This document shows, piece by piece, positions 11,691 to 41,058 of a stretch of DNA of 64,000 nt; positions within the stretch are counted from its first letter, which is position 1, and each line of letters starts with the position of its first letter. The notes below the pieces were generated by a model. It searched no databases. It worked only from the letters and a program-made list of their open reading frames with translations, and was not told where the DNA came from. The translations under genes and the position numbers were made by a program. The stretch is from contig OX597819.1 in assembly GCA_951406725.2 (NCBI GenBank), forward strand, positions 21,886,001 to 21,950,000. Reading direction: 5' to 3'. This DNA comes from Octopus vulgaris. Taxonomy: Eukaryota.

Positions 11691-13140
11691 GCTACCCTCC
11701 ACCCACTCTCGACAGACCACTTGATGAGAATATCTCATAGTCATCGAAAATGGTCGCTAGTTCTTGCACATTAGAAATCTTTGTCTCGCTAATTGGAACC
11801 ACATCTAAATTGAGTGACATGAAGTCCTTGACAAGTGACCTTGATTCCAAGCTGACCCCATGTCATGTACATCCACACAATCCACTCTGAAAACGAGCAC
11901 GTTTATCGGAGAAACATATGGAAGAAGGTGACTTACCTTGGATTTTGGTGCGGTTCGGTTGATTCAGTCGCCTCGTCTGGAGTATTATCATTGATGAAGG
12001 CCCTTCCCAAAGTCCTTTTGCCCGGCTTTAGCCTAAAGAGCCCAATGTCTTTTGGTTATTGTTTATGGTCTAGTTATGTGCTTGTGTCAGTTTTTATAAG
12101 TTGTCATGGGGAATTTTCAACAGAAGTTCGGTGAACCCTGCTCCTTTTGTATGAATATTCGTGTTGTTCACTACTTCCCGTATCAGCTCGCTGTTGCTTT
12201 TGCAAACGACTGTGAAGTTGATGAGGCTTTTGGCTACTGTGGTCACTTGTAAGGGTTGTTCTTGTGATTGTTGTTTCTCTTCGTGTATTTGTTTCGGTTT
12301 TGGTAGTTGAATGAATGTGCATTGCTTTTGTCGTTGGGATTTGGGTGAGTGTGTCGGTGTGGTTAGTGTAGCTGATGGATTAGGTGGAGTTTCCTCGTCC
12401 TATCTTTTCATTTTCAGTTTAGGATGGCCTATTTTTAAAACTATTTTTCCACTTTTCCCCAACACAAGACCTTCTGGGCGGATTCAATTCCTCCTCGTCA
12501 AATGATAAGGCTCCTGAATTGCCAGAGTCGTGAGTACATGGCGCATGAGTTGCCCGCGTGTAGAGATGGTCGGGCGTTTCTTATTTCCAGCGCTACAGTT
12601 GTTGGTGTCGCTGTTGTGATGAGATTCCTCCGTTGAAGACGGTGCTTTAATAGCTGTTGCTGCAAAGATTGTTGTTGCAGCTATTGGCCTTCTTGTGGTG
12701 GAGGCAGTGGTAGCAGAGCCGCCGTTCCTCTAGCTCCATTTTGTTGTTGTGGGTAGAAGCCCATCAAATGTGTTAGACCCACAAGTGAGGCACTTCGGCT
12801 TTCTGCCTTCCACCACGACCTAAAGTTATGATCGTTAGGCAGCTCGATAAAGTCAGGGAGCTTGTGCAGGGATTCCGGGTTTACCTGGATCAAACTCTCC
12901 AACCCGATCCCGGTCCATTCTTCTTTCGATATTTTCTTAATTTCTAGAAACAAATCTGGGCCTTCGACCTCGCCGCACGCAACCAACCACCAAATGATGA
13001 AGAAGAAGAAGAAGAAGAAGAAGAAGAAGAAGAAGAAGAAGAAGAAGAAGAAGAAGAAGAAGAAGAAGAAGAAGAAGAAGAAGAAGAAGAAGAAGAAGAA
13101 GAGTGACGCGAACACGAGTAGAAGGTGATGATGAGTAGAA
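11683..13140 (-). pseudogene. Decayed Tx1-clade LINE: ORF1 C-terminal half, spacer and N-terminus of the ORF2 APE domain
   Basis: ESLHKLPDFIELPND/VVVEGRKPKCLTCGS resembles the intact ORF1 IESLPDKIYLENG..VMAEGKKPRCYKCGS. FRVDCVDVHDMGSAWNQGHL..SLNLDVVPISETKIS..VGG resembles the intact ORF2 LKLGCVNARGLASAWKQGYL..SLDVDIVAISETRLS..GGG. It has frameshifts and an (AAG)n at 12999-13102. Confidence 0.85.
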
Positions 13141-29519: not shown

Positions 29520-29895
29520 TGTCTTTGGTTAACAATCGACAATGCATGCCTCGGTCACAAAAGGATCAATGTGAAAGAAGAAGAAAGAAATGAACGACCA
29601 TGACGATTTTAAGTGGGAAATACGAAGGTTGTGGTCAATGAGGAGAGGAGACGCGATATCATTAGCAATTGGCGCACTTGGAGGTATCGGTACTCAACTA
29701 CCAGCATGGCTAAAAAAAGATAAGTACACCTGCGAAGGTAGAACACCTAGAAAAATCAGCATTGCTTGGAACTGCAAGAATTCTTTGCAGGGTTCATGAA
29801 ATATGACCAGTAATCAAGTGTCACCTTGGTCTGCTGGCAGTAGACAGCTGACACTTTCCATCATACCCAGCAAAATAAGATATGAGTTATCACAT
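29520..29895 (+). pseudogene. 3' fragment of an RLE-type LINE followed by (CTA/CTG)n
   Basis: FKWEIRRLWSMRR...IGALG, LEKSALLGTARIL. The 3' UTR matches 31360-31440. Confidence 0.75.
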
Positions 29896-29924
29896 GCTAC
29901 TACTACTACTACTACTACTACTAA

Positions 29925-29968
<44 letters not shown>

Positions 29969-30007
29969 CTGCTGCTGCTACTGCTGCTGCCTCTGCTGCT
30001 GCTGCTG

Positions 30008-30069
<62 letters not shown>

Positions 30070-30088
30070 TCTGCTGCTGCTGCTGCTG

Positions 30089-30148
<60 letters not shown>

Positions 30149-30149
30149 A

Positions 30150-31445
30150 TATCAACGAGGTATTGGACAAGGAAATGAAAAAGGAACTCAGGATGAAGTA
30201 TTTCCGAAGACTGAGGTTGGTGTTGCGCTCAGAATTGTCTGGATGGGATAAAATCCAAGCAGTTAATACGTGGGTGATTGCATCACTTCGGTGTGGAGCG
30301 GGAATTATAAAATGGCAAAAGAGAGATGTGAAGATATTGGATACAAACACCAGAAAAATCTTCACAGTACATTGAGACTTCCACCCTAAGAGTGACACCG
30401 ATAGGCTGTACTTGTCCAGAAGAAAGGATAGGAGAGGTTTGATCAGTTGTCAGGACTGTATCGAAGCAGAGGAAAACAGCTTAGTGTAGTATATAATAAA
30501 TGCCGTGGAGTCATTATTAAAGCATACAAAGAAGGCCGGTGTCATAAACACTGAAAATTGTATAACTAAAGAAAACTTTAACCAAGAAATGAAAAAAAAA
30601 AGAAAAAGCACCGAAGGAAAAGAAAATGTATGGTTAGTTTGAAAGAGATGTGAACACCAAGAAGATATAGAGGGCCGGTGGCTTTGAATGAGGAAGAATG
30701 ACCTGCAGACAGAGACAGAAGCACTCATATGCGCAGCTCAAGAAGAAGCGTTAAGGACCAACTACATGAAGTGCAGAATAGACATCACTACCGATAGAAA
30801 CTATTGCCGAAATTGTGGTGAGAGGGGTGAAATAGTATGGCACATCGTTAGCGAATGTTCGAAATTGGCACAACGCAAATGCAAACGACGCCATGATAAT
30901 GTGGCAAGAATGATCCATTGGGTTCATTGTGGAAATCACATCCTAGAAAAATCAAAAACGTGGTATGAACAAACCCCAGAAGCAGTAACCGAAAATAAGA
31001 ACTGCAAAATCTTGTGGGGATCTAGTACGATCACCTGACCAGACAGCGGAAACCGAACATTGTTGTGGTGAATAAAAAAGAAAGGGCATGTGCAATAATC
31101 GACATAGGATACCCCTTTGACAACAGGATCAATGTGAAAGAAGGAAAAACCCAACAACTATGACGATTATAAGTGTAAAATACAAAGTTTGTGGTCAATG
31201 AGGAGAGTAGATGTGATGCGAATAGTAATTGGTGCACTTGGAAGTATCAGCGCTCAAGTTCCATCATGGTGGAAAAAAGGATTGCTGCAAGTGTGAAGGT
31301 AGAACACCAACAAAAACCAGTATTGCTTAGCACTGCTAGAATGCGTAGGGTTCTTGAAGCATGACCAGTAATCAAGTGTCACCTTAGTCTGCCGGATGTA
31401 GACAGCTGACACTTTCCATCATACCCAGTTAAATAAGTTATGATT
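30150..31445 (+). pseudogene. RLE-type (R4/Dong-like) LINE 3' half, decayed
   Basis: YFRRLRLVLRSELSG..KIQAVN, HPKSDTDRLYLSRRK..RGL, ETEALICAAQEEAL, CRNC..HIVSEC, RRHDN, ILW, KPNIVV, IIDI. Confidence 0.88.
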
Positions 31446-33609: not shown

Positions 33610-34522
<913 letters not shown>

Positions 34523-34825
34523 CTTTTTATTGTAGCCACACAGGGCTAAACACAGAATAAAAATGGACGAAATACAATGTAGAATTTTTTCTTTTCGAGG
34601 TGGGATGGGTGGGGCAAGAAAAAAAAAAAAAAAAAAAAAAACGTTTGATCAATAGGGATCTGTGGGTTGTGTGGTGTATAAAAAAGCAATATATATATAT
34701 ATATAAGGTTCACAGTTTAGGTGTAGTCTTGGAAAGAAAAACCTACAAAAAAGACCAAGGTCACCTCAGGCAATTCGAAAAAGAACACATGAGTAAGTCG
34801 CCTTACTTCTCGTTGTCTCTTTTGG

Positions 34826-37800
34826 TTACAGATTTATGCTTAAAATAGTGTCGTCTTTCATACTGACCATTTTTGCCACTTTTACCCACTTTTTATTAAA
34901 ACATTCGTTCGACAAAGCCTTCCTCTCTATTCTCATCCTCCTTTTCAAGTGGTACTTGAAAAAGTTGACGAGAGACTGACCAGAGAGGAAGGTGTTTGTT
35001 TGCAGTCCTTTCAAACGCGTCCACCACACACATTCTTTCGCCATAGCCATCAGCGTAACGAAAACCGTTTTCCCTTCCCGTTTAAAGGAAGGTGGTGGAA
35101 CAATATTCACAATAGACTCGGCCGATAGGCGAGCCTGACCTACACGTGACAACAGCTGTTCGACGAAGGACCACAGCTCTGAAATATCTGGACACTGCAC
35201 GAGTGCGTGCAGAACGGTTTCGTCGCTCTGACCGCATCTCGGGCAGGTCGGTCCGGTGATGGTTTTCGAACCGTGTCTGTAGCTCTTCTCTCGAACAGGT
35301 AGTGCGTCTCGATAGCACTGCCAAGCCAGGGATTTCTGGAAGTTATCCATAGGCCCCGGCCCGAACGTCGTCCTGAACAGGCGGGTTAGGAATTCCTCGT
35401 CGACGCCCAGGTTTGCCCCGAGTGTGTCGTCGGACCTCCCCTCCACTAGTCCTCTATAGAACGCTTTAGTCGTTTGGAAGTTGCACAAGTTTGACCCCGG
35501 TCGGCAGAGCTGCTGTAGAGCTTGGCGACACTCTCGGTGCCAATCGCCCAGTTTCGGTCTCTTTTTGATCCACGTTTGCAGTTCGGTCAGTGAGACGAGC
35601 TGCGGGAAGTCGCGCCTCACAAACGGCGCCCACACCTGTTCACCGTCGTCGATGAATTTCCAGAGATGTCGCAGTCTCAGCGCATGCCTGCGCATCATCA
35701 ACCACGGCATGCCCAGTCCTCCATTCAACGGATGTTGACAGCAAATGGACTTCCTCACCATCGGAACGCCACCCTTCCACAGGAAGCGGAAGAGTATGCG
35801 TTCCAGTTTGGTGATGGTGGCGTCGGGACAAGGTACGACGGTCAGGCGGTAATCGATGACGGATGCGATGTACGCGTTCGCCACCTCCGCCCGGCCTTTT
35901 AGAGACAGCTTTCTCTCGGCCCATGTTTGGCTGAGAGCGACCACTCTACTCGTGATCTCGTCCCAGTTCTTATCCATTTGGAGGTCCGGACTGAACCAGA
36001 CCCCGAGCAATTTAACCGGTCCGTCCGTCCAGCGTCCCACTACTGAGCCGCAGTCGGACGGCATGGGCTTGCTTCTCCAGGTGCCGAGTAGCAAACCCAC
36101 TGACTTTTCCGGGTTAATCTTTGCTCCCGTCACCGTTTCATATTTTCTTAGTGTCTCGCCGACCAGCTCGATGTGCTGGTAGCTCGACACTATGACGGTG
36201 ACATCGTCCGCATATGCCGACACGCTCGTCCCGCAACCCAGTTCCCGTGGGATGCCCCTCAGTGTCGCCAGCTTCCGCAGTAGCGGCTCGAGAGTCAATA
36301 CATACAGAAGCGCCGACAGGGGACACCCCTGACGGACCGAACGCGTGATGTCAAACGGTTTAGACAGGTGACCGTTTACCCGAATCACCGATCGGATGCC
36401 GCTATACAAGGCAGCGATCCAACCGCGGAAGACGGGACCGAAGCCAGCCGCCCTGAGGACGGCCGCCAAGTACCGATGGTCGACCCTATCGAAGGCTTTA
36501 GACTGATCCAAATTTATCAGCGCCCCACCCATGCCAGGATCCTTAACTACCCTGTCCACAATGTAGCGCATCAGATGGAGGTTGTCATGTATGGTTCTGC
36601 CCGGCACGGCGCATGTTTGCGCCCTGTCGACCAGTTTACCAATGACAAGCGCCAACCTCTCGGCTATTACTTTGGCCAAAATTTTCAAATCTGCGTTGAG
36701 CAGAGTGATGGGCCTGAAATTATCTATAAAATTCCCCTTGTTTGAGTCTTTCTTCAGCAACGTCACTGCACCTCGGCTCACGAAACCGGGGATTCTCCCG
36801 TTTTGTTGCCAGTTGCAGTAGACTGATGCCAAGAGGTCGCCAAACAAGTCTGGCATTCGACAATACAGCTCGTAGGGTAAACCATCCAATCCAGGCGACT
36901 TATCCCTCGCGCAGCCCGCCATCGCATCCCACACGTCAGCGGCTGTGATGGGACTTTCACAACACTCCGCCTCTCTTGCCGAGAGCCGCGGCAGGTCGGT
37001 CAGGTAGGCACTGAAATCCATCCCTCGTTCCGACCCACCACTCGCACCAAACAGTCGAGCAAAGTGCTGTTGAAAGGCCTCACACATCCTTTCGGGTTCG
37101 AGTAAACTGCATCCCTGTTGATCTATTAGAGACCGAATGGTTGATCTGTTGCCACGCTGCGCCTCCGCTACCCGGGCCTCTCGCGCAGCTTCAATCCCTT
37201 CGTTCCTTAAGGCACGCATTTTAGCTCTGACGACGCAACCTTCGTGCTTGGCGTTGAGGTGTTGGTCGAGGGCCATCCTCGCAGCTAGCACGTTGGTTGC
37301 GCTGCCAGTGGTAAGTGCCTCTTCTAGTTTCTTAACTAAGTCTCCCTCTACTCTATTTCGTTCTATCGCTAATTCCTTGCTAAACCTAATTGATTCCGAT
37401 TTTATTGCCATTTTCAGGGCGTACCACCAGCGGTTGTTAACGACCGCTCCCGTCAGCGCCCTCTTAATTAACTCGCTAATCCGGTTCCTGTAAACCTGTC
37501 GCGCTAACAGCGACGTGTTCAGTTTCCAGTAACCGGGACCCTGCCTATGTGTTTTATCTAAGTCGAGCGTACACGTAACAAATTTGTGATCTGTGTAGCT
37601 GACTATTTTAAATTGTGGACATCCTACACTATCCCTATCCGCTGTCCTGCATAGAATTCTATCTAGATAAGATCTCGACGATCCGACGCGGTTTGTCCAA
37701 GTCCACGTTGGCACGTTCGGATGGTCGAGTCGGAACCTGTCAGACAAATGGAAACGTCTGAGCAGGTCTTTGAGGCTCTTACACCCCCTTCTATTCCTAT

Positions 37801-38275
37801 CCCTTCCCACATAATCTAGATGCGTGTCCAAGGTAGCGTTCCAATCCCCTACTAACAGTAAAGGTCTAGACGTACCCAGGAAAACCTCTAGACGTCTGAA
37901 GAAATCCGCCCGACCCGTTAAGGACGGTGCATAAACTGCCATCAGACGGAATGCACACCCATTTCTGCCATCCACGTCCAAGACAACCAGCCTACCCTCC
38001 GGGTCTAGGAATATTGCTCTTACTTTTACCTTTAGACTCTTTCGAAAAAGCACCGCAGTACCTCCACCACCCATGTTCGGCAGACAGGGAGAAAAATAAA
38101 TGTCAAATTGATTGCCAAACATGGACTCGAGGGCCCGCGGCTTACTGAGTCTGGTTTCGCTGATAGCTACTATATCCACGTCCAGTGACTTGATGTCGTT
38201 TAGAAGGTAACCTTGCTTCCAAGCCGACGCCAAGCCACGCGCATTCACACAACCTAATTTAAGCATACTTGACAA
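34826..38275 (-). CDS. Tx1-type ORF2: AP endonuclease, reverse transcriptase and C-terminal zinc finger (1149 aa from TTG; first ATG at 38266)
   Basis: APE motifs GCVNARG, ISETR, VYAP, VGDWN, YLDRI and TDH. RT motifs SPGLDG, FRPITLLNADLK, DQSKAFDRV, RQGCPLS and YADD. C-terminal CPRC..ETVLHALVQC. Confidence 0.97.
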   Translation of the reverse strand: MSSMLKLGCVNARGLASAWKQGYLLNDIKSLDVDIVAISETRLSKPRALESMFGNQFDIYFSPCLPNMGGGGTAVLFRKSLKVKVRAIFLDPEGRLVVLDVDGRNGCAFRLMAVYAPSLTGRADFFRRLEVFLGTSRPLLLVGDWNATLDTHLDYVGRDRNRRGCKSLKDLLRRFHLSDRFRLDHPNVPTWTWTNRVGSSRSYLDRILCRTADRDSVGCPQFKIVSYTDHKFVTCTLDLDKTHRQGPGYWKLNTSLLARQVYRNRISELIKRALTGAVVNNRWWYALKMAIKSESIRFSKELAIERNRVEGDLVKKLEEALTTGSATNVLAARMALDQHLNAKHEGCVVRAKMRALRNEGIEAAREARVAEAQRGNRSTIRSLIDQQGCSLLEPERMCEAFQQHFARLFGASGGSERGMDFSAYLTDLPRLSAREAECCESPITAADVWDAMAGCARDKSPGLDGLPYELYCRMPDLFGDLLASVYCNWQQNGRIPGFVSRGAVTLLKKDSNKGNFIDNFRPITLLNADLKILAKVIAERLALVIGKLVDRAQTCAVPGRTIHDNLHLMRYIVDRVVKDPGMGGALINLDQSKAFDRVDHRYLAAVLRAAGFGPVFRGWIAALYSGIRSVIRVNGHLSKPFDITRSVRQGCPLSALLYVLTLEPLLRKLATLRGIPRELGCGTSVSAYADDVTVIVSSYQHIELVGETLRKYETVTGAKINPEKSVGLLLGTWRSKPMPSDCGSVVGRWTDGPVKLLGVWFSPDLQMDKNWDEITSRVVALSQTWAERKLSLKGRAEVANAYIASVIDYRLTVVPCPDATITKLERILFRFLWKGGVPMVRKSICCQHPLNGGLGMPWLMMRRHALRLRHLWKFIDDGEQVWAPFVRRDFPQLVSLTELQTWIKKRPKLGDWHRECRQALQQLCRPGSNLCNFQTTKAFYRGLVEGRSDDTLGANLGVDEEFLTRLFRTTFGPGPMDNFQKSLAWQCYRDALPVREKSYRHGSKTITGPTCPRCGQSDETVLHALVQCPDISELWSFVEQLLSRVGQARLSAESIVNIVPPPSFKREGKTVFVTLMAMAKECVWWTRLKGLQTNTFLSGQSLVNFFKYHLKRRMRIERKALSNECFNKKWVKVAKMVSMKDDTILSINL

Positions 38276-38332
38276 TTACGAAAATTGTGTTTTACACACT
38301 ATATTAGAAGAGACAAGAGGCAAGAAGTGAGG

Positions 38333-40204
38333 TCACTTACTCATTTTAAAAGTTTCATTTTTTTCTTCTTCTTTTGTATCGTTTTTGATGAGGTGTTTGT
38401 ATAGTTTTTTCGACAGGTATCGTTGATACCCGCCTACCGCATTCGGAAATAATGTTTTCAGTATGTGGTGTTGTGCTTGTGTTATGTGTAAAATTCTGAT
38501 GTGTTTCGGTGGTGTGGTGTGCGGATGATTGTTTGTCTTAAAATCATCTTCACAGACGACCATGTTAGATTTGATGTAGTCCATTAATTCTTTATTGTCT
38601 GTGTCTATTGCAGTTAGTTGTGTGTGTGGTTTTACGGGTTCATTACTTTTTTGATTGTCTAGGGGAATGTTGTCCTGAGTGAGATATCTCCCTGCTTTAA
38701 TTCCTTGTTTGGTGGATTTTTTGGATCTTTTTCTTTTACCCCCTGTGGCTATTTGCCATTCCGTCGAACTTTCGTCGTCCGAGGTATCAGTATGGGGTAG
38801 AGGAAAAAGAACAGGATCACTATGTATGCTTGTATAAATTGTTGATGTTTTGTGCGGTGTTTGTGTTGTTGTGGTGTTAGGGGTAGCATTTGTCTTCTCG
38901 TCAGTGTTTTCTGTCTTTTTAATTGTCGTCCTGGGTGTGGGTGTGGGTCGATTTTTTGAAGATTCAACAAGTTTAATTGGTTGTGACGTCAACGGTGATT
39001 GTGTTGGTACTGTTTTTCTTGGTGATGTTGTTGGGGTTTGTTGTTTTTCTTGGCGTTGTTCCATAATTGAGTGTGTTGGTGTTGGTGTTGGCAACAAAGG
39101 GATTTTATTTGTTTTCTGAATTGTTCTTTCTTGTTTTTTCTGTACCAGATCGCACTTGGCAATCAAATGTTCGGGGCTGCCACATTTGTAGCATCTAGGC
39201 TTTTTGCCTTCTGCCATAACATATAGGCATTGCCCATTCTCCAAGTATATCTTGTCGGGTAGGCTCTCGATAGAGGCCCCCTCAATCTGGATGGTCACAA
39301 CTACTGTTTTTCCACCCCAATTGTCGTTTAGGTACACGGCTGTTTCTAGAATATTGATCTTTTTCAAGTGGTAACAGATTGCCCCTGTTATCCATTTGTT
39401 CGGCATATCGGGGGGTACATTTCTGATAGTAATTCTACTCACCCTCTGGTTTTTATAATAAGGGACCATGATGATTTCATCATTTCCCAGAGACTCAGTA
39501 GAGTGAGCTTTTGCCACTTCCTGGTTAGGGAAGCGGACCACTACTGTGTTAAACTGTGGACCCCAGTTTATATACTCTTTTTCTTTCATTATATTTTTTA
39601 AACATTTCTCCACATCAGTTTTTGTAATCTGTTCATTTGGTTTTTTGTTTTTTCTAATAATTTTATATACAATTGTCTTATTTTCAATTTCTTGTTTTAT
39701 ATGTTGAGGTGTATGCAGGACTAAATCTTGTCCACGGGTTGTAAAGAGAGCTCTTGTTTCTATGAGCTCTTCATTTGTGAATGTAACAATCTCCTTTTTC
39801 TGGCGAAGAATATCTGCGAAATTTACTGTTGTTGACTTTTTTGTATTGGCATCTTCACTATTAGATAGTTCATTTTTATTGTTGTTCTTGTTGTTGCTGT
39901 TGTTTTTGTCAATAGTTTTCGTTTCAGTTTTATTTTTATCATTTATGTTGGTCGTGGTAGTGGTGGTGGTGGTGGTGGAGGTGGTGGTGGTAGCAGTTGT
40001 TGTCTCGTGGTTGCTGTTGTTAGTGGTGGTGGTGGCGTTGGTGACAGGGCTGTTAACGCACGTGGTTGCAGCGTTCCTTTCACCGAATTTCACGTTGGCA
40101 TTTTCCGTGCGAACGTTCTTTTTTTTTTCTGTCGTTTCCAGACTAGGAAAATGTTGTTCCAAAAAAGAACGCGACCAGCGTTCAACAATAAAATTTCTAG
40201 ACAT
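38333..40204 (-). CDS. Retrotransposon ORF1 (gag-like nucleic-acid-binding protein), 623 aa
   Basis: Single CX2CX4HX4C knuckle CYKCGSPEHLIAKC (39152-39193) after an RRM-like region (RITIRNVP). It also has T/N- and T/P-rich linkers and a basic GGKRKRSKK. It is in the same frame as ORF2. Confidence 0.93.
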   Translation of the reverse strand: MSRNFIVERWSRSFLEQHFPSLETTEKKKNVRTENANVKFGERNAATTCVNSPVTNATTTTNNSNHETTTATTTTSTTTTTTTTTNINDKNKTETKTIDKNNSNNKNNNKNELSNSEDANTKKSTTVNFADILRQKKEIVTFTNEELIETRALFTTRGQDLVLHTPQHIKQEIENKTIVYKIIRKNKKPNEQITKTDVEKCLKNIMKEKEYINWGPQFNTVVVRFPNQEVAKAHSTESLGNDEIIMVPYYKNQRVSRITIRNVPPDMPNKWITGAICYHLKKINILETAVYLNDNWGGKTVVVTIQIEGASIESLPDKIYLENGQCLYVMAEGKKPRCYKCGSPEHLIAKCDLVQKKQERTIQKTNKIPLLPTPTPTHSIMEQRQEKQQTPTTSPRKTVPTQSPLTSQPIKLVESSKNRPTPTPRTTIKKTENTDEKTNATPNTTTTQTPHKTSTIYTSIHSDPVLFPLPHTDTSDDESSTEWQIATGGKRKRSKKSTKQGIKAGRYLTQDNIPLDNQKSNEPVKPHTQLTAIDTDNKELMDYIKSNMVVCEDDFKTNNHPHTTPPKHIRILHITQAQHHILKTLFPNAVGGYQRYLSKKLYKHLIKNDTKEEEKNETFKMSK

Positions 40205-40404
40205 TTTCTAATGTCGAGAAGAAAATAACAGAAATGAAATGGGGTCGAAACTGCCCCTAGGGGCGAATTCCTCCCTTGGAATGGCACTCAAATGAAAGTT
40301 GGTTGCCTTACACACCTTATTTGCAAAAATCTACACAAAAATTGGCCTATAAATAGTCAAAATAAATGATTACCTTCGGAGCTGAAACGACATCACATCC
40401 GTCA

Positions 40405-41058
<654 letters not shown>

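Follow-up and report, generated by a model that had tools for sequence, protein, structure and literature searches.

A splice donor-like motif conserved at the ORF1 stop of an octopus LINE, and its possible use in an ORF1-only mRNA

An intact LINE in a (TATC)n microsatellite

The window analysed here, the whole 64,000-nucleotide stretch of Octopus vulgaris DNA, contains an intact LINE on the minus strand (~40404-34521), flanked by (TATC)n on both sides as one insertion. It carries the features of the Tx1/L1 type, namely an ORF2 with an APE endonuclease, a reverse transcriptase and a C-terminal zinc-binding domain, and a separate ORF1 with a zinc knuckle; we call it a putative Tx1 element. The ORF1 zinc knuckle is weak (Pfam zf-CCHC, E 0.002, below the curated cut-off), and the zf-RVT match in ORF2, at 27.0 bits, lies slightly under the cut-off of 27.5. 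ORF1 and ORF2 share one frame, and 66 nt with a second in-frame stop separate the ORF1 stop from the ORF2 ATG. The features are listed below; D0, D1 and D2 denote the donor-like sites in the 5' UTR, at the ORF1 stop and near the ORF2 stop, and a slash marks the putative exon end.

34521..40404, minus strand: full-length Tx1/L1-like LINE, within the (TATC)n microsatellite
40368..40376, minus strand: D0, donor-like AAG/GTAATC in the 5' UTR
40208..40244, minus strand: acceptor-like stretch, a pyrimidine tract with a TAG, 3 nt upstream of the ORF1 ATG
38333..40204, minus strand: ORF1, 623 aa, with zinc knuckle; homologous to ORF1 of the array relatives described below
38335..38340, minus strand: D1, GTAAGT donor-like motif overlapping the ORF1 stop, its GT starting at 38340
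38299..38331, minus strand: branch-like CTCAC, pyrimidine tract and first AG (38299), a natural-looking acceptor before ORF2, only 42 nt from D1
38273..38278, minus strand: in-frame TAA with TTG after it; with the commoner allele at 38275 the sequence is TAA ATG
38254..38269, minus strand: two more AGs, 38268 lying out of frame and 38254 being the in-frame site of the proposed fusion
34826..38266, minus strand: ORF2, 1146 aa, with APE endonuclease, reverse transcriptase and zf-RVT, and its own ATG
34743..34806, minus strand: D2-like GAA/GTAAGG, 19 nt past the ORF2 stop, and pyrimidine tract with TAG at 34743, 64 nt apart
34789..34798, minus strand: 10 nt of 3' UTR perfectly reverse-complementary to 38344-38335 (D1), pairing also with the nearby D2 in a hairpin
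11695..12950, minus strand: related decayed (fossil) copy, with ORF1 remnant, AAG/GTAAGT at 11936, pyrimidine tract, TTTTCAG at 11887 and ORF2 start

In addition, frames at 29800-30450 of the window resemble what is presumably a fragment of another non-LTR reverse transcriptase region, broken by a trinucleotide repeat.

The end of ORF1 reads AAA ATG AGT AAG TGA on the minus strand. The original prediction had described a splice donor on this stop that could fuse ORF1 to ORF2, and its coordinates for the GTAAGT are right. The donor does sit on the TGA in the sense that the last base of GTAAGT overlaps the ORF1 stop, whereas the TGA that precedes the GT is out of frame. The same arrangement had been claimed for the fossil copy and is found there, the TAA lying inside the AAG/GTAAGT at 11936, with the first AG (11887, 50 nt on) in frame. 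Resampling of local codons, with the stop kept, yields a GTRAGT within -10..+5 of the stop by chance in 1.0% of cases for the window element, 2.2% for the fossil and 4.0% for one of the array relatives (L071). Judged from these sequences and those of the relatives, a donor at the ORF1 stop exceeds chance and is truly conserved. On an ad hoc U1 score, D1 of the window ranks 3rd of 320 GT sites, its exon side being weak. An AGG/GTGAGT inside ORF1 (minus strand, 39245 area; element position 964, about 39442) outscores D1 on the same score.

Downstream of D1, the CTCAC and the pyrimidine tract are present as predicted, the tract being pyrimidine at 23 of 27 nt and lying directly before 38299, not before 38254. 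Joining D1 to the AG at 38299 would remove 42 nt in frame and give a product of 628 aa; the AG at 38268 (73 nt) is out of frame and would give 625 aa; and the AG at 38254 (87 nt) is in frame and would give a 1763-aa fusion in which FKMS is joined to CVNARG. The 87-nt and 42-nt distances, the phases and the 1763-aa product agree with the original prediction. Its choice of 38254 as the acceptor does not hold up as well, since this is the third AG and the tract points to 38299.

ORF2 has its own ATG at 38266, on the minus strand, as had been proposed. Upstream of it, according to the 40 variants listed of 267, the TAA ATG allele at 38275 accounts for 10967 of 11869 in depth in the sequence set X20, 24.1 of 24.1 in X5 and 15 of 33 in X1. 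This commoner allele, which places an in-frame ATG directly after the TAA, suits reinitiation.

At the other end of the element, the window D2 is weak and located in a hairpin, and the 3' UTR has no special RNA fold (z 0.17). Joining D1 to the candidate distal acceptor at 34743 would yield an ORF1 of 629 aa. The 3' UTR complement at 34798-34789 could mask D1 or D2, or be a chance match, at a few percent.

Donor-like motifs at both stops in related elements

A contig scan of genomes located relatives with 41-42% ORF2 identity as tandem arrays in one MAG (G001, 67 matches); filed under a bacterial MAG, these arrays are evidently eukaryotic host DNA. They occupy about 17 contigs (C3-C19, loci L064-L106), mostly as head-to-tail arrays of intact 6.4-6.9 kb LINEs, and look like a self-targeting family. 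The window ORF2 and the array relatives form one clade (SH-aLRT 100 in a quick tree), ~1.7 changes per column apart, and their ORF1 proteins are homologous. No Rfam match was obtained in four array loci, which therefore do not lie in snRNA arrays. A word-based ORF1 search and a viral contig scan gave no match, the ORF1 alignment was too variable to serve a locus scan, and 37 ORF1 homologues, mostly fragmentary at the C-terminus, gave no information there.

The junction set comprised 15 distinct sequences from 76 occurrences in 41 overlapping loci. D1 is present in 14 of the 15, as a TAA followed by (A)G/GTAAGT and then 7 nt to the ATG, so that the donor comes after the ORF1 stop and 13 nt before the ORF2 ATG; in none of the 15 is there an AG between the donor and that ATG. 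Among 25 distant LINEs examined, one of them without a clear ORF1, a GTRAG lies near the ORF1 stop in 1 of 24, a rate close to the 1-4% expected by chance per locus. The conservation of GTAAGT at ORF1 ends, which the original prediction had named as a check, is borne out in relatives. The single distant case (L015:1925-1940) has GG/GTGAGT on the ORF1 stop, by chance or convergence.

In the L097 lineage, the exception within the arrays, D1 is replaced by a TAATG in which stop and start overlap (L097:990-1010), and a perfect CAG/GTAAGT is kept 40 nt past the ORF2 stop. In decayed copies from a second MAG, the D1 motif is kept in L153 and in L152 (the latter likely with a deletion) and shows one change in L150; L153 represents a decayed subfamily of ~70% nucleotide identity in which D1 is kept while its flanks are different. 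The main array subfamilies being 84-100% alike, the independent lineages bearing D1 number about three, against one without. In these lineages D1 falls within the last codons, across the stop or after the stop, and because its phase differs in this way the constraint acts on nucleotides.

A second motif, D2 (GTAAGT or GTGAGT, the variants matching the donor consensus), is found at each of the 38 ORF2 stops that were read (10 different contexts), at -4, +14 or +40, in relatives whose 3' UTR is ~700 nt long; L150, L152 and L153 also carry it. On the ad hoc U1 score, D1 and D2 take the top two places among the GT sites of L064 (376 sites), L071 (389) and L077 (366). Donor-like sites near the 5' end are present in the 11 main array units aligned and absent from L097. 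Regarding acceptors, no single conserved one could be assigned to these donors in the 3' UTRs, because these are pyrimidine-rich with many AGs. An acceptor shared across the clade before ORF1 was considered and rejected, since an AG is missing ahead of the ORF1 ATG in one subfamily (17 occurrences).

Some array units lack their 5' part and are joined at one common 3' end, and therefore copies appear to pass through RNA with their donors intact. No ORF2-less retrocopy was found in the 41 array loci.

Search for spliced RNA, intronless copies and fused proteins

Contigs of three sequence sets presumed to be RNA (X1, X5 and X9) and of one that is probably DNA (X20, 76% of it read) were placed on positions 37000-40405. 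Such contigs drop rare forms and show neither the strand nor whether an RNA starts in the element, and because the comparison covered this interval a joint from D1 to the 3' UTR would be visible only as a loose end. No joint at 38340 occurs among the 15 joints listed of 17, no loose end at 38341 among the 24 listed of 310, and no intronless copy is listed in the contigs of the four sets over this interval.

The spacer is spanned unspliced in X5, by one contig of 1787 nt at depth 24, and in X1, by a contig of 308 nt; the 5' UTR contigs of X1 and X9 are unspliced as well. All 14 differences of the X5 contig from the window are listed and only that at 38275 lies in the spacer, the contig being identical to the window at the donor and at all AGs. 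In X9 the cover is thin at ~38275-38352 (bin depth 3.95), where a spliced path could be hidden or a filter could have left a gap. X9 also has a loose end at window position 38847, where ORF2 sequence follows in reversed orientation, which suggests a copy that is inverted or rearranged. In X20, rare deletions are seen at depths of 14-56, against ~33,000 in the spacer bin, and none of them is at D1.

At the protein level, no fused ORF1-ORF2 protein was found among 68 ORF2 matches; in two of the 68, neither of them a close relative, over 100 additional residues precede the best alignment. No reverse transcriptase domain was found in the 11 longer ORF1 matches scanned, of 150 listed.

A possible ORF1-only mRNA and its alternatives

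The excess of ORF1 over ORF2 protein that LINEs produce from one RNA is usually ascribed to inefficient reinitiation. For the element described here we infer an additional use of splicing, with a probability of about 0.4, in which splicing itself, the choice of acceptor and the role of U1 are all conjectural: D1 would be a selected U1 site through which ORF2 is spliced out to give an ORF1-only mRNA, and it may also protect the unspliced genomic RNA. As a 5' splice site bound by the U1 snRNP and fixed at the end of ORF1, D1 would be spliced to a remote acceptor beyond the ORF2 start, probably one within the 3' UTR. The ORF1-only mRNA would supply excess ORF1 protein, the unspliced RNA would serve as the transposition template and give ORF2 protein by reinitiation at ORF2's own ATG, and U1 at D1 may suppress premature polyadenylation of the full-length RNA. 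Splicing from D1 would, in the relatives, take out the ORF2 ATG that lies 13 nt further on. Because an ORF1-only RNA encodes no reverse transcriptase, it would not be copied in cis and the donor would never be lost. The paradox of intron retention raised by the original prediction would likewise be removed, because a spliced RNA lacking the reverse transcriptase would not replace the unspliced template. The position of D2, at -4 to +40 of the ORF2 stop, fits junctions that escape nonsense-mediated decay under the 50-55 nt rule, which may not be the host's.

A wider form of this proposal, which we consider possible and rather doubtful, is that of a deep LINE clade programmed by splicing, with ORFs bounded by splice signals, an ORF1-only mRNA and transposition of the unspliced RNA only; in the host lineage an ORF2-only or fused mRNA would possibly be made too. 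Fixed donors at both stops throughout a deep clade would reveal splicing or U1 binding as a second route, of a kind so far described for LTR elements. If true, a splicing-programmed LINE would be a counterpart of copia and of retroviral subgenomic RNAs. Such donors could, in addition, interfere with host genes in which the element is inserted in sense.

U1 might instead bind D0, D1 and D2 without any splicing, guarding an intronless RNA from premature cleavage and polyadenylation or aiding its processing, with the donors sitting at the stops only because these are non-coding stretches. The fallback offered by the original prediction, a U1-binding site, was of this kind and fits the data. Binding without splicing we consider unlikely. 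The donors are conserved and the acceptors are not, the subfamily without an AG before the ORF1 ATG could not use one there, the contigs seen are all unspliced, and U1 is described as playing such a role in the plant element EVD (PMC5580714). ORF1 is also A-rich, with four AATAAA in the window element, the nearest 263 nt upstream of the stop; however, in the three array units that were checked ORF2 contains no AATAAA that U1 could suppress, and binding alone does not account for D2 being kept no more than 40 nt from the stop when the UTR extends for 700 nt.

Quite unlikely, and compatible with an ORF1-only mRNA, is the use of the tract and AG at 38299 as an acceptor for a 5' UTR donor, which would produce an ORF2-only mRNA like human SpORF2, the precedent for it (PMC2896524). 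ORF1 and ORF2 would then be mutually exclusive cassettes, because D1 and 38299 are too close to join; a literature search gave no figure for the shortest intron that the host can splice. Of the three internal tracts with 23 or more pyrimidines in 27 nt, two do lie just before the AGs at 40208 (ORF1) and 38299 (ORF2), but T-rich spacers also occur in distant LINEs that have no donor (L001, L008 and L009). Moreover, the array relatives lack an acceptor before ORF2, no joint 40374/38298 is among the joints listed, and the X1 and X9 contigs read through the 5' UTR.

The fusion of ORF1 to ORF2 by a local intron (87 nt in the window element, 50 nt in the fossil) is improbable even for the host lineage, to which it would be limited. 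As a conserved function it lacks support, being impossible in the array relatives because their donor follows the stop and no acceptor precedes the ORF2 ATG. It stays viable in the host lineage because both window copies would be joined in frame; this in-frame agreement is not beyond chance, with expectations of ~0.56 for the window element (two candidate AGs) and 0.33 for the fossil, jointly ~0.19. FKMS resembles LKLG, the first strand, with the conserved Asn kept, and the fossil spacer has no in-frame ATG; yet full-length ORF2 proteins of the clade begin with their own Met just before that strand. A CTAAT at 38306 could act as a branch point and bypass 38299, and, TAG being preferred to AAG as an acceptor, the TAG may beat the AAG at 38268. 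Against these stand the absence of a joint at these sites among the 15 listed of 17, the contigs of X5 and X1 across the spacer, the lack of a deletion at D1 in X20 despite rare deletions elsewhere, and cis preference, which should erase such an intron. Spliced copies are given as ~2% of full-length human L1 events in the relevant section of PMC5860796.

There is, finally, a slim chance that the motif is unrelated to U1, acting instead in protein binding, structure or reinitiation, or that it arises in part from the stop codon contained in G-TAA-G: in human L1 a RUNX3 site is described as containing a conserved donor (PMC5860796), the motif also occurs in one of 24 distant LINEs (L015), and the 10-nt complement lies in the window 3' UTR, but the full AG/GTAAGT match, the A/G alternation at +3, the frame independence and the recurrence at both stops speak against it, as do the lack of a GTRAGT complement on the L071 sense strand and of a special fold at the junction (z 0.91).

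The closest parallel to an ORF1-only mRNA is found in EVD and other plant Ty1/copia elements, where a conserved U1 site splices a GAG-only RNA and blocks premature termination (PMC5580714). Arabidopsis EVD shGAG, and Drosophila copia as described in the same paper, likewise have a U1 site close to where the structural ORF ends; in EVD the spliced RNA serves for structural protein and the unspliced RNA as template, and by analogy the window element would work in the same way. These are LTR elements with one gag-pol frame and, in the account given there, demonstrated splicing, whereas the window element is a bicistronic LINE with predicted splicing, its donor on an existing stop and a second donor after ORF2. 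Human L1 also keeps splice signals in an active LINE, with ORFs in one frame, two in-frame stops and a ~60 nt spacer, and yields SpORF2 (PMC2896524) and rare spliced retrocopies, SpIREs (PMC5860796); there, however, the donors are in the 5' UTR and remove ORF1, and the relevant parts of these two papers describe none at the ORF1 stop.

Spliceosomal introns are reported in Penelope-like elements (PMC4209133) and antisense introns in TART (PMC1636488), so that intron retention is not in itself paradoxical. Those cases concern another element order or antisense RNA and, as described there, have no tie to ORF1/ORF2 expression. The domain layout and the insertion in a microsatellite are shared with the Tx1 families Kibi, (TC)n, Koshi, (TTC)n, and the crocodilian elements, (TTCC)n/(TTTC)n (PMC4494074, PMC3812793), but the target here is (TATC)n, seen once, and the passages on those families report no splice signals. 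A 2026 paper on octopus repeats lists L1-Tx1 families, the words 'splic' and 'intron' being absent from its main text (PMC13282606). No report of the donor-on-ORF1-stop layout was found in a literature search with most subscription journals and Repbase outside its range.

Other features of the array elements were observed in passing. In L071, L072, L087 and L092 the 5' UTR has a donor-like CTCG/GTAAGA in an inverted repeat, followed ~190 nt later by a TTTTCAG or TTTTTAG acceptor, and a 5' UTR intron is possible in this subgroup. Within L064-L106, ORF1 is 66-76% identical between subfamilies, and ORF2 together with the 3' end of ORF1 is >90% identical, with a sharp boundary ~300 nt before ORF2 that suggests ORF1 swapping. 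Other MAGs, G002 (contig C16) and G003, contain long eukaryotic stretches with decayed or intact LINEs (43 and 77 matches, respectively).
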